A DNA stretch of 64,000 bases, taken from a phage. The stretch lies in sequence record PV805631.1. One strand, written 5' to 3'. The number at the start of each line of letters is the position of its first letter. The first letter of the stretch is position 1. Positions 416 through 5,808 of this stretch are shown here, piece by piece. The position numbers and the translations under genes were made by a program. The notes under the pieces are model-generated. The model worked only from the letters and a program-made list of their open reading frames with translations, had not been told where the DNA came from and did not search any database.

Positions 416-613
416 TTGGAGGTAGTCAACATGACAGACATCTATGATGTTATTACTAAAACTGTACTGATAGTTTTATCTGCTATTGTGGTATTCACTA
501 TAGCCAATGTTCATAAATCCAAGTTTTCCTATTGCTACTATGGAGCATACTCTGCCGGTTGTTTTGTATTAGCCGGTTGGATAGCTTACTGGATTTACCG
601 CATCAACAACTAG
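416..613 (+). CDS. Small hydrophobic membrane protein (hypothetical)
   Basis: 65-aa ORF with two hydrophobic segments, bracketed by terminators. Confidence 0.4.
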   Translation: MEVVNMTDIYDVITKTVLIVLSAIVVFTIANVHKSKFSYCYYGAYSAGCFVLAGWIAYWIYRINN

Positions 614-640
614 CCACCCTCATGGGTGGCTTTCTTTTTT
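612..640 (+). terminator. Intrinsic terminator
   Basis: Stem AGCCACCC / GGGTGGCT, loop TCAT, then TTCTTTTTT. Confidence 0.7.
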
Positions 641-687
641 ATCAGCCTTCATAATAATTAGGCATATTTACTCAAGAGGATACATGT

Positions 688-1509
688 ATGCCAACCTTAA
701 AGATTGCGTTTAATAAAACAACCAACGTTGCTATCGTGCTTGATTCAGATGGTAGTGTTCCAGATGGTTTTGCGGAAGTAGGTACTTTTGTACATCCTGA
801 TGCCACTTACCCTGATAGCTTAGTTATCTATCACGGTGTACGTGACCTGTTGTATAAACGTTCTGCTGAAGACCCTGCTGAAGAAGGTTTCTGGCCTAAC
901 AGCATCGTGGATATGCAGTCGATCACTATTACCCCACAACTGACTATTGCTACCGAACTGCTTAATGAAGTCTCTGCCATCGAAGGTGAAGATATTAACT
1001 GGCATATTGATGTAGCAGGTGGTAAAGCACCTTTTACCTATAAGTGGCAATACAAAGCAGATACTGATGATGCAGTATTCACTGATATTGATTCTGATGA
1101 CAACGAATCTGCTGCTACTGCAACATTGACCATTAGTGGTGTAACCGCTGCTTCTGCTGGTACTTATAAAGTGATTGTTACTGATGCTAATGGAACCACG
1201 GTGGAAGATACCTCACTGCTGACTGTAAGCTACCCCGAAGCAAGCTCACTGGTAGCTACCCCAGATTCACTGGAACTGTCTGTTGCTGACGATACTACTG
1301 ATGGCAAGACTGTAACCATCACTGCTTTGCCTGTCGGAGCGTCTGTTGGTACTTTATCTATCAAGACTGCTCCGGATTCTGCCCGTGCTACAGCTACCAT
1401 TTCTGGTAACGTACTAACAGTTAAACCAGTGGCAGAAGGTGAAGCTACTTCTGTAGTAGTTACCAACGGTACTGTCGATGTAACCATCGCTATTACTGTT
1501 GCAGAGTAA
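688..1509 (+). CDS. Hypothetical protein with Ig-like repeat character
   Basis: 273 aa, Thr/Val/Ala-rich beta-strand segments such as 'TYKVIVTDANGTTVEDTSLLTV' and 'TVKPVAEGEATSVVVTNGTVDVTIAI'; domain assignment is by pattern only. Confidence 0.5.
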   Translation: MPTLKIAFNKTTNVAIVLDSDGSVPDGFAEVGTFVHPDATYPDSLVIYHGVRDLLYKRSAEDPAEEGFWPNSIVDMQSITITPQLTIATELLNEVSAIEGEDINWHIDVAGGKAPFTYKWQYKADTDDAVFTDIDSDDNESAATATLTISGVTAASAGTYKVIVTDANGTTVEDTSLLTVSYPEASSLVATPDSLELSVADDTTDGKTVTITALPVGASVGTLSIKTAPDSARATATISGNVLTVKPVAEGEATSVVVTNGTVDVTIAITVAE

Positions 1510-1567
1510 GGGTATCCCTTATTTGGGGTTATAAACCCTGAAAGGAATCCCTCTAGTTTGACCTCCC

Positions 1568-1597
1568 TATTGAAGGGAGGTCTTTTTTGACTTAAAC
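1568..1597 (+). terminator. Intrinsic terminator
   Basis: Stem GACCTCCCT / AGGGAGGTC followed by TTTTTT. Confidence 0.75.
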
Positions 1598-1613
1598 AAA
1601 CCGGAGCCAGGAA

Positions 1614-1802
1614 ATGTATAAAGAGATTGCATTCTTCTCGTTCTTATTAGGAGGGTTAATTGGTGCAGGAATTGTAGCTATTTCTAATACCTACTTTGGT
1701 TCTACTCCAAATTCTGTAACACAAACCCTCAAGCATGAATGTGAATTGAATATCCCTCGTAACCAAAACTGTGTAATGCAGTTCGTACCGGAGAAGAAAT
1801 GA
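1614..1802 (+). CDS. Small membrane protein (hypothetical)
   Basis: 62-aa ORF with N-terminal hydrophobic segment 'IAFFSFLLGGLIGAGIVAI'. Confidence 0.4.
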   Translation: MYKEIAFFSFLLGGLIGAGIVAISNTYFGSTPNSVTQTLKHECELNIPRNQNCVMQFVPEKK

Positions 1803-1984
1803 AACTAACCCAGTCCCAAGCAATTTTCCTTCGCATGGTTCAAGGTGGTTCTGCCACCAGCAACCGTAATAACAAAACCGCACAGTCTCTTAAGAAGCTG
1901 GGCTTAGTACAGTTCAATGCTGGTCTTGGGTGGTCATTAACCCCTACCGGTGTACTTCAACTCAACGAATTAAAAGGTAACTAA
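1799..1984 (+). CDS. Hypothetical protein
   Basis: 61-aa ORF overlapping the previous stop (ATGA) and abutting the next gene; operon packing. Confidence 0.35.
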   Translation: MKLTQSQAIFLRMVQGGSATSNRNNKTAQSLKKLGLVQFNAGLGWSLTPTGVLQLNELKGN

Positions 1985-2311
1985 ATGAAAACTTTAATTG
2001 CTGTTGTTCTAGTAGCTCTATCAGTTCTGTCATTCGGTGCTCAAGCATCTAGTCGTGCAACCTTGTTGGAATCTGCTGCTGATTACAAAGCTAATAATGC
2101 AAACTTTGTGAATCAAGGTTACTTCATGGGCATGGTTACTATGGGTGTGGAAGCAGGAAAGAATTGTGTACCTGACGGTATAAAATTAGGGCACATTTTT
2201 GACAGAGTGGCATCTATTATTCTGTATGACCGAAAGGTTAATGCAGTAAAAGTACCATCAGACATGGTTCTGTTAGCGATTAATACAGCCTATCCCTGCG
2301 TTAAATCTTAA
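1985..2311 (+). CDS. Hypothetical secreted/periplasmic protein
   Basis: N-terminal signal-peptide-like 'MKTLIAVVLVALSVLSFGAQA'. Confidence 0.45.
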   Translation: MKTLIAVVLVALSVLSFGAQASSRATLLESAADYKANNANFVNQGYFMGMVTMGVEAGKNCVPDGIKLGHIFDRVASIILYDRKVNAVKVPSDMVLLAINTAYPCVKS

Positions 2312-2345
2312 TTAGTAATTCCATTAACTTTAGGAGAGTAAGTAA

Positions 2346-3398
2346 ATGGCGAGCATTGACTCCTTGACTGTATGTAATACACGCCAAGCCCGTAACTTTA
2401 TTATCCGTGCCTTGCAAGCAGGTAACGTACCGTTCCTGACTTCATCACCAGGTATGGGTAAGTCTGCAATTATTCGTTCTATTGCAGAAGAATTTGGTAT
2501 GAAGCTGATTGACCATCGTCTGTCTACTTCTGCCCCGGAAGACTTATCTGGTCTACCATTCCGTAATGGTGACCGTGCAGAGTTTATTCCATTTGCTGAC
2601 TTATTCCCTATCGAGGGTGACAAAGTACCGGATGGTTATAATGGCTGGCTCCTGTTCCTTGATGAGTTCAACTCAGCTAAGAAAGAAGTAGTGGCTGCTG
2701 CATACAAACTAATTCTCGACCGCATGACCGGACAGAAAAAACTTCACCCTAATGTGATGATTATCTGTGCCGGTAACAAAGCTACTGACCGAGCCATAGT
2801 TAACCCACTGGGTACTGCAATGCAGTCTCGTGTTGTCCACTTCGAAATGGAACTCGACTTCGACATCTTTGTTGAAGACGTAATGATTCCACAAGAATGG
2901 GATGAGCGTCTGGTTGCATTCTTACATGCTAACCCTGGTTATCTGCATGACTTCGACCCCGCACATAAGAATAAAACATTCTGTTGCCCACGTACCTGGG
3001 ACTTTGTTAACAAAGACCTCAAGAACCGACCAGAAGGTGCTTTGCCTGATGAAGATTCTATCTACTATGCAGGCCACGTTACTGCTGGTAAAGCTACAGA
3101 GTTTGTTCAGTTCACTCAGGTATACAATCGTATGATTACGATTGAGAAGGTAGTAAAAGACCCGTTAGGCTGTGCACTACCGGAAGATAATAACCTGTGT
3201 TGGGCTACTGTTAACCATCTGGCTAACAAAACTACTGAAGATAACTTCGCTGATGTTCTTCAGTACATTGAACGCTTTAAAACGTTCACCCATAAGATTC
3301 TGTACTTCCGTACAGTAGGAAAAGCATTACCAGAAATTCAGGCTACCCCTGAATGGCGTAAGGCTGCTGCCAATATCTCTCGTTACATTCACGGATAA
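2346..3398 (+). CDS. AAA+ ATPase (MoxR/AAA_5-like)
   Basis: Walker A 'SPGMGKS', Walker B 'LLFLDEFN', sensor-like 'ICAGN'; RBS AGGAGAG upstream of the ATG. Confidence 0.75.
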   Translation: MASIDSLTVCNTRQARNFIIRALQAGNVPFLTSSPGMGKSAIIRSIAEEFGMKLIDHRLSTSAPEDLSGLPFRNGDRAEFIPFADLFPIEGDKVPDGYNGWLLFLDEFNSAKKEVVAAAYKLILDRMTGQKKLHPNVMIICAGNKATDRAIVNPLGTAMQSRVVHFEMELDFDIFVEDVMIPQEWDERLVAFLHANPGYLHDFDPAHKNKTFCCPRTWDFVNKDLKNRPEGALPDEDSIYYAGHVTAGKATEFVQFTQVYNRMITIEKVVKDPLGCALPEDNNLCWATVNHLANKTTEDNFADVLQYIERFKTFTHKILYFRTVGKALPEIQATPEWRKAAANISRYIHG

Positions 3399-3401
3399 AC
3401 T

Positions 3402-3878
3402 ATGAACTGGCATGAACTATTTGTTTATAGCAATGGTTCCCTTTACTGGAAAGTAAGTAGGGGCTGCGTAAAAGCAGGTGCCATTGCTGGTTGTTTGGAT
3501 AACAGCGGGTATTTGCGTGTTAAATGTAATAGAAAAAATCATTTAGTTCACCGCATAATTTATGAAATGGAAATTGGTCCAATTCCTGATGGTATGCAGG
3601 TAGACCATATTGACCACAATAGGCTAAATAATTACCCAAGTAATTTCCGTTTAGTAACAAACATGGTTAATAGTAAAAACCAAACCATGAGAGTAACAAA
3701 TACATCAGGTGTGACAGGAGTATACTGGCACACTCGGGATAAAATTTGGACTGCCCATATAAATGACAATGGTAAACAAATTTACTTAGGAAAATTTAAC
3801 AGTAAACAAGAAGCCATTTCAGCCAGAAAGGAAGCAGAAAAATTATTGGGCTACCATATAAATCATGGGGAACCCTAA
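3402..3878 (+). mobile_element. Free-standing HNH homing endonuclease (HNH plus AP2-like DNA-binding domain)
   Basis: 'DHIDHNRLNN...NFRLVT' HNH-type motif, then 'SGVTGVYWHTRDKIWTAHI...QIYLGKFNSKQEAISARKEA' AP2-like; sits between the ATPase and vWA genes. Confidence 0.75.
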
Positions 3879-5053
3879 TGAATAGTATACCTACGCATAC
3901 TCTCACTGATGAACGGTTAATGAGGGAGTACGATAGAATACAAGCGCAGGCATTTCTCGGACGTAGTGCAGCGTTTTTTGGTTCATTGCTGTGTAGTCTT
4001 AAGTTCTCATGGAAACGTGAGGGCTGTCCCACTGCATGTACCGACGGGATAGAACTCCATTTCAACCCAGACTTCTTTATCTGGATGTGTCCTGATGCAA
4101 GGGAAACAGTGCTAATGCACGAACTTTGGCATGTGGCATATCTGCATGGAATCCGTTGTGGAAGCCGTGATCCAGAAGTCTGGAACCAGGCATGTGACCA
4201 CTTCATTAACCTTCAGTTAGAGGAAGATGGTTACAAGTTCACTGGTATCGACAAAGGCATTTGCAAAGACCCTCAATATAAAGGATGGGTCGAAGAAGAC
4301 ATCTACGATGACCTGATGAAGAACCCTCAGAAAAGGCAGAAGCCGTCGGGGGGAGCTGGAGCAGGTCTTGCTGGCGACATGAAAGCTCCCTCTTCGGGGC
4401 AGTCCCAGGGTGCTGTTGTCAACAACGTAGTACGTGCAATACAAAGCCAGAAGATGGCTGGTGGAACGATGCCCGGTAAAGGTGCTGGTCGTATGGAAGA
4501 GGTTATTACCCAATTCCTTAAACCAGTGGTTCCGTGGCAGGAAGTCCTGATGAACTTCTTTACCGACATTGATGATACGCATTATACGTGGGCCAGACCC
4601 AACCGTCGTTTCACTGACGTCTATCTACCTTCTCTGGAAGATGATGAAGGACGTTTACGACACTTAGCCTATTTTGAGGATGTATCCGGTTCTATTAGTA
4701 GTGCTGACTCTCTGCGTTTTAACTCAGAGGTTGCCTACGTTAAGAGCCAGTTCAATCCTAAGAAGATGACCCTAATTACCTTCGACGATATTATCCAAGA
4801 AGAAATAGACATCACTGAAGAAGATACTTTTGAAGAGATTAAGATTACTGGACGAGGGGGTACAAACCTTGAACCAGTGCGTGAATGGATTATTAAGAAT
4901 AAGCCAACCGCTGCAATCATATTCTCTGATATGTATGTTCGCCCTATGGAAGATTTACCATTTGATATTCCTATCATCTGGTGTGTTCTGAATAATCCTA
5001 ATGCTACCGTACCTTTTGGGGAGGTAGTTCATATCCCTAAAGGAATGAAATAA
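3878..5053 (+). CDS. vWA-domain protein with N-terminal putative metallopeptidase-like region (partner of the AAA+ ATPase)
   Basis: 'VLMHELWHVAYLHG' (HExxH), C-terminal vWA-like 'ITGRGGTNLEPV...AAIIFSDMYV'. Confidence 0.65.
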   Translation: MNSIPTHTLTDERLMREYDRIQAQAFLGRSAAFFGSLLCSLKFSWKREGCPTACTDGIELHFNPDFFIWMCPDARETVLMHELWHVAYLHGIRCGSRDPEVWNQACDHFINLQLEEDGYKFTGIDKGICKDPQYKGWVEEDIYDDLMKNPQKRQKPSGGAGAGLAGDMKAPSSGQSQGAVVNNVVRAIQSQKMAGGTMPGKGAGRMEEVITQFLKPVVPWQEVLMNFFTDIDDTHYTWARPNRRFTDVYLPSLEDDEGRLRHLAYFEDVSGSISSADSLRFNSEVAYVKSQFNPKKMTLITFDDIIQEEIDITEEDTFEEIKITGRGGTNLEPVREWIIKNKPTAAIIFSDMYVRPMEDLPFDIPIIWCVLNNPNATVPFGEVVHIPKGMK

Positions 5054-5559
5054 TGATTGTTAATGGTAATTCTCTATACCGTTCATCTCAATTGCTGGAT
5101 GTCCCAGACCGTAAGGTATCCGAGCATGGTGTAAGCTATGGATTAGGTGAAGCTGGTTATGATATTCGTATCAAACAAGACATTACCTTCTATCGCTTAT
5201 TTGGGTTAATTCCAATGGTGAAAATCGTCGATGGAAAACAAGTATCACGCCATCTCGGTAAATTCGCATTAGCTTCAGCAATTGAGAAGTTCAACATGTC
5301 ACCCTCGTGTGTAGCTATCGTTCACGATAAGTCCACATGGGCAAGACGTGCATTATCTGTGTTCAATACCGTAATAGAACCAGGATGGAAAGGGTATCTT
5401 ACCCTTGAACTGGTCTATCACGGTCGTAAGAAACTGCATATCCCGGCTGGTGCTGGGATAGCTCAAGTATTATTTCATCTGGTTCAAGAGCCTGCTAATT
5501 ACAACGGCAAGTATCAGAATCAGGAGGACAAACCAGTAGCTGCAAGAAGCAGTAAATAA
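5053..5559 (+). CDS. dcd: dCTP deaminase-like protein
   Basis: 'IEPGWKGYLTLELVYHG...YNGKYQNQ' parallels E. coli Dcd 'IDPGWSGCIVLEF...YNRREDAKYRNQQG' as recalled. Confidence 0.65.
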   Translation: MIVNGNSLYRSSQLLDVPDRKVSEHGVSYGLGEAGYDIRIKQDITFYRLFGLIPMVKIVDGKQVSRHLGKFALASAIEKFNMSPSCVAIVHDKSTWARRALSVFNTVIEPGWKGYLTLELVYHGRKKLHIPAGAGIAQVLFHLVQEPANYNGKYQNQEDKPVAARSSK

Positions 5560-5568
5560 GGAAACAAC

Positions 5569-5769
5569 ATGTCTGTATTTCAAGTAACTCCTGTTGATAG
5601 TACCCAACGTAAAACTATTGTTGCAACTAATGTAGTAGATGTAGATGAAACCCCAGCTGGTGCTGTAATCCATCTGATTGATGGGCGAACTGTAACTGTA
5701 AAAGAAAGCTATCGTTCAGTACGTGGTTACGTCCGTAAAGCTTTAGCTGCTGTCTCTGATGCAGAGTAA
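5569..5769 (+). CDS. Hypothetical protein
   Basis: 66-aa ORF in operon context. Confidence 0.35.
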   Translation: MSVFQVTPVDSTQRKTIVATNVVDVDETPAGAVIHLIDGRTVTVKESYRSVRGYVRKALAAVSDAE

Positions 5770-5780
5770 GTAGCTGCCTA

Positions 5781-5808
5781 AATAGCCCAACTATGCTGGG
5801 CTATTTGT
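5781..5808 (+). terminator. Hairpin, possible weak terminator
   Basis: Stem AATAGCCCA / TGGGCTATT with a short T-tract. Confidence 0.3.

Follow-up and report, generated by a model that had tools for sequence, protein, structure and literature searches.

The gene gp24.1, at positions 3402-3878 (+) of the 64,000-nucleotide stretch of phage DNA analysed here (the window), very probably is, or recently was, a homing endonuclease gene inserted at the junction of gp24 and gp25, as judged from sequence comparison and structure modelling. The open reading frame starts with ATG and encodes a protein of 158 aa. The stretch 2346-5053 is 100% identical to Escherichia phage vB_EcoP_G7C (HQ259105 / NC_015933), an N4-like phage classified in Schitoviridae, Enquatrovirinae, Gamaleyavirus; window coordinates equal the coordinates of the G7C record minus 7515. 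GenBank already annotates the ORF in G7C as gp24.1, "putative HNH homing endonuclease". An earlier note had read it as a homing endonuclease gene inserted between the ATPase gene and its VWA partner. Empty alleles, the domains of the protein, the scattered distribution of carriers, local differentiation, low GC content, the GenBank annotation and PMC3670811 support this reading.

The gene is packed between its neighbours as the earlier note had described. The upstream flank gp24 (2346-3398, +; 350 aa) encodes an AAA-type ATPase (Pfam AAA, E 2.4e-6; PHROG 1297 ATPase, E 4.5e-134; G7C annotation) and ends with TAA at 3396-3398. The intergenic spacer ACT follows (3399-3401, +), so that the ATG of gp24.1 at 3402 begins on the fourth base past the stop. 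At the other end, the gp24.1 TAA (3876-3878) and the ATG of gp25 (3878-3880) share one A, giving TAATG. The downstream flank gp25 (3878-5053, +; 391 aa; G7C annotation) matches the Pfam families DUF2201_N (E 1.3e-54), a putative metallopeptidase domain, and DUF2201 (E 2.9e-34), a VWA-like domain. NCBIfam has no match for gp24, gp24.1 or gp25.

Free-standing is the appropriate description of gp24.1: it is accompanied by no intron RNA, does not lie in frame within a host gene, and is flanked by gp24 and gp25 that are both full length in comparison with empty alleles. It is neither intron- nor intein-borne. A search of Rfam at gathering thresholds recovered no intron RNA family anywhere in the window, and with the ORF lying between two intact genes we rejected an intron-encoded gp24.1 for G7C. 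We also rejected a promoter or terminator of its own, because a consensus scan of 2000-5800 gave sites that were no commoner than in shuffled sequence and none that was suitably placed. Most simply, gp24.1 is co-transcribed with gp24-gp26.

The HNH/AP2 architecture proposed in the earlier note is borne out by profile searches for the nuclease part, and by the modelled fold for the AP2 part. In the predicted protein, a His-Me finger nuclease domain that resembles I-HmuI and has its full set of catalytic residues precedes an AP2 domain. The nuclease domain occupies aa 48-91 (3543-3674, +), as placed by Pfam and by a phmmer alignment to PDB entry 1u3e. It matches Pfam HNH_3 (PF13392) above the cut-off (64.1 bits against 24.8, E 9.2e-18), and the protein matches PHROG 99 'HNH endonuclease' with E 2.6e-63. 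The AP2-type DNA-binding domain, comprising three strands and a helix at approximately aa 102-149 (3705-3848, +), was placed by Pfam, the model and Foldseek. Its Pfam AP2 match (PF00847, aa 102-138, E 6.5e-7) scores 30.0 bits, under the cut-off of 33.3; a precomputed PF00847 match is present in close homologues of gp24.1, and the call is backed by the confident model and by the Foldseek matches to AP2 domains.

The structure model, built with AF2 from 49 homologues, has a pLDDT of 92.1. It contains a beta-beta-alpha-metal fold (strands 65-69 and 82-86, then a helix at 87-91) and an AP2 fold in which a three-stranded antiparallel sheet (107-110, 115-122, 125-132) packs on a helix (135-149). The top PDB match of the model in Foldseek is I-HmuI (1u3e; E 1.1e-4, probability 1.00), while its C-terminal unit matches the plant AP2 domains TEM1, WRI1 and AtERF1 with probabilities of 0.99-1.00 and rmsd of 1.1-2.6 A. 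In the phmmer alignment to 1u3e, residues D68-H69, N81 and N90 fall on D74-H75, N87 and N96 of I-HmuI, which we take to be the catalytic general-base His and the metal-binding Asp and Asn residues of that enzyme. Across the 49 homologues H69, N77 and N81 are invariant, and D68 and N90 are at least 90% conserved.

Homologues of gp24.1 occur in 3645 phage records; the best match outside the genus, among the matches listed, is in Klebsiella phage KLPN1 (47% identical). Between G7C and UE-M6 the gene has a dN/dS of 0.095, which indicates that the protein is under purifying selection. That the ORF arose by chance, or is an annotation artefact without coding function, would fit its small size and nothing else. 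The profile matches (HNH_3 E 9e-18, PHROG 99 E 2.6e-63), the 3645 homologue records, the pLDDT of 92 and the dN/dS value rule this out, and we give it a negligible probability.

I-HmuI of Bacillus phage SPO1 is also the best match to gp24.1 by sequence among solved structures (E 7.4e-5, ~23% identity), and the likeness extends to the fold and to the aligned catalytic D-H...N...N residues. I-HmuI is encoded in a group I intron in a DNA polymerase gene, and its C-terminal DNA-binding region is of the helix-turn-helix type. In contrast, gp24.1 is free-standing and carries an AP2 domain in place of that region. Closer in architecture is the HNH-AP2 family, described as a recognised homing endonuclease family of phages, cyanobacteria and protists in PMC10448857, which cites Magnani et al. 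2004. Members of this family, including IPA-HNH of vibriophage ICP1, share with gp24.1 an N-terminal HNH and a C-terminal AP2 domain; like gp24.1 they are phage-borne, mostly free-standing and often located beside conserved genes. Two differences are apparent: the HNH part of ICP1 IPA-HNH is too divergent for Pfam HNH_3 (PMC10448857) whereas that of gp24.1 is canonical, and the putative target of gp24.1 is the gp24/gp25 (ATPase/VWA-like) pair and not a replication or structural gene.

The comparison with related genomes had been set beforehand as a check on the insertion reading. A megablast search returned 59 related records, which represent approximately 42 distinct Gamaleyavirus-like phages; we retrieved and aligned 19 loci for comparison of the junction. 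Ten phages have a gene at the gp24/gp25 junction: G7C, UE-M6, UE-S5a, UE-S5b, UE-M3, Mimir124, Bp4, PD38, Uz-1 and Moonfish. It is missing from about three quarters of the relatives (~32 of 42) and from the outgroups Jgk1, Moo19 and N4. The absence in the ~32 phages is evident from the length of the interval, which they span in 2233-2236 bp and not in the ~2710 bp of the carriers; the interval is longer only where separate insertions occur in gp24. Endonuclease-free alleles therefore exist and form the majority, and the gene is far from being present at this site in all relatives.

The empty junctions also polarise the change. Jgk1 (~80% identity) and Moo19 (Moovirus) have an empty junction together with the non-carrier type of gp25 5' end, and N4 has no gene between gp24 and gp25, where the annotated gap is 167 nt. 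It follows that the empty state is ancestral. The N4 gap (1998-2164 of the retrieved locus) contains a GGGAG...CTCC inverted repeat as well as an open frame of ~55 codons. At 3549-3593 of the retrieved Moo19 locus, translation of the gp25 homologue probably begins 3 nt past the stop of the ATPase gene (ATGAACCAG...), which places it 14 codons ahead of the annotated start.

Alignment of the junctions indicates where the gene entered. In the empty alleles of Gamaleyavirus, gp24 and gp25 are 4-7 nt apart, usually with a 7-nt spacer and with 4 nt in PW8 and ECBP1, and the junction takes the form TAA, 4-7 nt, ATGAACCAG. A typical empty allele reads ...CACGG(A/G)TAA-TCACAAC-ATGAACCAGATACCTCAGCAC..., that is, TAA-spacer-ATGAAC-CAG. 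The occupied allele reads ...TAA-spacer-ATGAAC-TGG...CATGG(G/A)G(A/C)ACC(C/T)TA-ATGAA(T/C)..., so that the insertion is flanked on both sides by the hexamer ATGAAY. The left copy, ATGAAC at 3402-3407 (+), is the start of gp24.1; in empty alleles gp25 begins with the same six bases. The insertion is accordingly one nucleotide shorter than the ORF (476 nt in Mimir124). The 7-nt spacer TCACAAC/TCACATC of most empty alleles is retained in Mimir124, Bp4 and PD38; in G7C it has shrunk from 7 to 3 nt, leaving ACT.

By this alignment, gp24.1 has taken over the former start of gp25 (ATGAAC) with its upstream signals, and gp25 has a new start, rebuilt at the gp24.1 stop (TAATG). A Shine-Dalgarno-like GGGGA at 3867-3871 (+), found by sequence and junction alignments within the last gp24.1 codons (..NHGEP*), plausibly keeps gp25 translated. 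Its equivalent GGAG is retained in Mimir124, Bp4, PD38 and Moonfish, and the motif in either form sits 6-8 nt upstream of the gp25 ATG. The C-terminal ..NHG(E/A)P* is kept in all gp24.1 lineages, with UE-M6 ending in ..HGAS. The motif and the rebuilt TAATG start together leave both gp24 and gp25 intact in one operon.

The contribution of gp24.1 to the start of gp25 raises the possibility that the protein has been domesticated and, instead of spreading itself, mainly acts as an AP2-type DNA-binding regulator, couples the translation of gp25, or is directed against competing phages through marker exclusion. Its 3' end gives gp25 a putative ribosome-binding site and an overlapping start, a feature that its three lineages share; three HNH-AP2 paralogues are retained in G7C; and AP2 domains have elsewhere been co-opted as transcription factors, according to PMC10448857, which refers to Magnani et al. 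However, three quarters of the relatives do without the gene, with gp24 and gp25 only 4-7 nt apart, and it is therefore not essential to the function of gp24/gp25. Conservation extends to the nuclease motif and is not limited to the AP2 part, and marker exclusion is the same biochemical activity as homing. We therefore regard domestication as very unlikely.

Several features point instead to a mobile gene. In neighbour-joining trees of both flanks (700 nt upstream, at the 3' end of gp24, and 1055 nt of gp25 from +113 to its end) the carriers are not monophyletic but form three or more clades that are mixed with non-carriers: UE-M6 clusters with U1G, Bp4 and PD38 cluster with IME11, pSb-1 and 24-32N, and G7C and Mimir124 cluster with SP5M, NAN33P5 and E20. 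The GC content of gp24.1 is 36.5%, against 44% for the window, which makes it the lowest 477-nt window in the 64 kb (lowest 0.2%).

The junction genes form three lineages, namely G7C/UE, Mimir124 (73% nucleotide identity) and Bp4/PD38/Moonfish (62%). Synonymous sites are saturated between the lineages, whereas the flanks differ by a dS of only 0.16-0.39; within the G7C/UE lineage the dS of the gene is 0.37, matching the flanks. This pattern indicates that old lineages of the cassette have been shuffled onto young backbones or, alternatively, that the site has been invaded repeatedly. An 81% homologue of gp24.1 occupies the same site, but homologues with 49-56% identity lie at other loci in unrelated contexts, for example beside a DNA polymerase A gene. 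Site fidelity is thus limited to junction copies of ~60% identity or more, and the scatter of the more distant homologues is expected of a family with diversifying specificity.

Two of the junction copies are disrupted. The Moonfish copy (~1557-2005 of the retrieved locus) has lost 31 nt between TCTGGTA direct repeats, which cuts the protein to 117 aa and removes most of the AP2 domain; it is a decayed or decaying allele, of the kind that a late stage in the life cycle of a homing endonuclease gene should produce. In the Bp4 record (501-3210 of the retrieved locus) frameshifts split gp24, gp25 and the endonuclease gene at their junction, that of the endonuclease gene being a 1-nt loss in an A-run; the near-identical PD38 is intact. 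These splits are probably homopolymer sequencing errors and not biology. We did not count the Bp4 frameshift as gene decay, since gp24 and gp25 of the same record are split too.

Presence of gp24.1 is linked to a recoded tract at the 5' end of gp25 (3893-3970, +; core 3894-3937), delimited by fixed differences, divergence, a tract tree and blastn. As fixed differences we counted sites with no allele shared between carriers and non-carriers, over 2157 comparable columns of gp24 and gp25. All nine such differences outside the gene lie at 3894-3937, corresponding to gp25 nt +17 to +60, and the whole length of gp24 has none. Random groupings of six phages (3000 permutations) give a mean of 0.003 fixed differences and a maximum of 2. 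Six of the nine are synonymous, including two arginine codon switches from CGT to AGG/AGA (AGR); the remainder comprise Q6T, S10T and a change in codon 13, which is synonymous in most carriers and Q13R in G7C.

The tract has sharp limits, and differentiation of carriers from non-carriers extends over no more than the gene itself and ~60 nt of gp25. Divergence between carriers and non-carriers reaches 0.28-0.31 just downstream of the gene, against 0.02-0.12 elsewhere in gp24 and gp25, where it equals the diversity within groups. G7C and its nearest non-carrier relative, SP5M, agree at every one of the final 78 nt of gp24 and differ at ~29 of the 78 nt of 3893-3970, and downstream of 3970 the mismatch density drops to background. 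A tree of the tract alone recovers the carriers as monophyletic, which they are in no other part compared. Sensitive blastn searches of 3879-3990 against 50,697 phage records found the recoded tract in carrier Gamaleyaviruses only and recovered no source lineage for it, so that an external donor was rejected. The sampled records include no 'immune empty' allele, that is, the tract without the gene. We also considered whether the target is unusually conserved in non-carriers and rejected this, because its nucleotide diversity (0.05-0.10) is no outlier relative to the rest of the genes. The first ~25 nt of gp25 are invariant out to Moo19.

We consider it more likely than not that the recoded tract marks the target or immunity site of gp24.1, and it probably represents a disrupted target site, which would make it a self-immune version of the target. 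Alternatively, it could be a donor polymorphism that has hitch-hiked since the first insertion and is not a selected determinant of immunity. The two readings are not mutually exclusive.

A course of events consistent with these results would be the following. An HNH_3-AP2 gene would have entered an ancestral phage of the Gamaleyavirus group exactly at the gp25 start codon; the gene is inherited as a cassette with the recoded stretch of gp25, codons 6 to 20. In a mixed infection the enzyme would recognise the conserved, unrecoded gp25 5' end of a non-carrier and nick or cut it. Recombinational repair from the carrier genome would then copy the gene and the adjacent recoded tract into the recipient, while the tract would shield carriers from their own enzyme. 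The loss of differentiation within ~100 nt would reflect sharp limits of co-conversion. We infer the nuclease activity of gp24.1, its target and its super-Mendelian transmission. I-HmuI is a nickase, and a double-strand break by gp24.1 should therefore not be assumed.

A similar scheme is familiar from the free-standing endonucleases of T-even phages, such as SegG at gene 32 and MobE at nrdB, which are encoded by intergenic genes and spread by 'intronless homing'. Their target lies in the adjacent conserved gene, the donor is shielded by target polymorphisms, and nearby markers are co-converted. Seg enzymes are of the GIY-YIG family and Mob enzymes of a different HNH type, and their activity has been shown experimentally. 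The linked recoded tract at gp24.1 matches this scheme; the nuclease families differ, and the activity of gp24.1 is a prediction.

The main competitor to active homing is that gp24.1 is a passive accessory gene, a former homing endonuclease whose patchy distribution results from ordinary homologous recombination and occasional deletion, with no enzyme-driven conversion. A neutral accessory gene could likewise become distributed over different backbones when co-infecting phages undergo ordinary homologous recombination. Gamaleyaviruses recombine heavily, as the equality of between-group divergence and within-group diversity outside the cassette illustrates, and 22 module-swap loci are reported for G7C-like phages (bioRxiv 10.1101/542787); according to the same preprint, the swaps often involve genes related to homing endonucleases. 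Decayed copies are also present, namely those with the 31-nt deletion of Moonfish and the frameshift of Bp4, the latter perhaps a sequencing error. Yet the catalytic residues are intact, purifying selection is strong (dN/dS 0.095), and the low GC content has not drifted to the genome average. The gene is perfectly linked to the recoded tract on its target side, and the boundaries are extremely sharp. Deletion fails to account for the empty outgroups, which carry the non-carrier type of tract. We accordingly consider a purely passive gene unlikely and favour a present or recent homing endonuclease gene.

A broader reading would see the mobile unit as a self-immunising cassette that persists as a long-lived polymorphism, with three lineages competing for one site and the gp24-gp25 module serving as a hotspot of nuclease genes. 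The cassette would consist of the endonuclease gene, the built-in ribosome-binding site of gp25 and the 45-80-nt recoded gp25 5' end. We give this reading an even chance. If true, it would offer a compact natural system for studying arms races between endonuclease and target and the replacement of lineages. Of practical value is a clean, testable prediction of the target, namely the first ~60 nt of gp25 in their unrecoded form. At 158 aa the enzyme is small, and for crosses there are natural pairs of carriers and non-carriers, which include three diverged enzyme lineages at one site.

With regard to the hotspot, intron-like insertions encoding NUMOD4-HNH_3-AP2 proteins are present inside gp24 of U1G, PW8, NAN33P5 and pSb-1. 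These insertions of ~870 bp lie at codons ~67, 105 (in the Walker B 'LDEF' motif) and 216, equivalent to 2545, 2660 and 2993 of the window; they span 822-1760 in U1G and 708-1575 in PW8 (retrieved-locus coordinates), and NAN33P5 has two of them. Their matches to group I introns are full-length and sub-threshold (19-36 bits, cut-off 50). The gp24 gene of G7C has none of these ~870-bp insertions. The nucleases inside gp24, including those of the Vibrio N4-like phages JA1 and VchO139-I, in which HNH genes split the gp24 homologue (PMC3670811), belong to the same nuclease plus AP2 family as gp24.1 and occur in the same neighbourhood. They differ from it in splitting the ATPase gene and in their extra NUMOD4, whereas gp24.1 interrupts no gene and has no intron RNA signature. 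Taking the gp24.1 site together with the three intron-like ones inside gp24, mobile elements seem to have a hotspot in the gp24-gp25 module.

Elsewhere in the window, two further ORFs encode HNH_3 and AP2 domains: gp41.1 (19563-20060, +), located before the gp42 exonuclease and 30% identical to gp24.1, and gp47.1 (26077-26574, +), located after gp47 and 37% identical. Their numbering marks both ORFs as insertions relative to N4, and the G7C annotation calls them HNH endonucleases.

As a homing endonuclease gene, gp24.1 is new neither in kind nor as an individual case. With five, G7C has more HNH homing endonuclease genes than any other N4-like phage, and none of them disrupts a gene (PMC3670811). 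In the literature searched we found no mention of the recoded tract that is linked to gp24.1, of the ribosome-binding site that is built into the gene or of its three lineages. These are modest added details and not surprising ones, since such features are to be expected. In lytic phages, free-standing homing endonuclease genes are a leading cause of mosaicism and marker exclusion, and mapping the genes with their targets therefore helps to explain phage recombination boundaries.

Annotation of the flanking region calls for some care. PHROG 1314 and many RefSeq records (e.g. NC_070869, NC_008720, NC_070850) give proteins of the gp25 family the label 'HNH endonuclease'. Pfam detects no HNH domain in gp25, giving only DUF2201_N and DUF2201. 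The label is probably a propagated misannotation, and could inflate or mislead annotation-based counts of homing endonuclease genes. Upstream of gp24, the gene gp17.3 (1985-2311, +) encodes a protein of 108 aa with a signal-peptide-like N-terminus and a weak match to Pfam Rap1a (E 0.0014, below the cut-off). In several relatives it is annotated as Tai4/Rap1a, a family of type VI secretion immunity proteins, which would be an odd cargo for a lytic phage.
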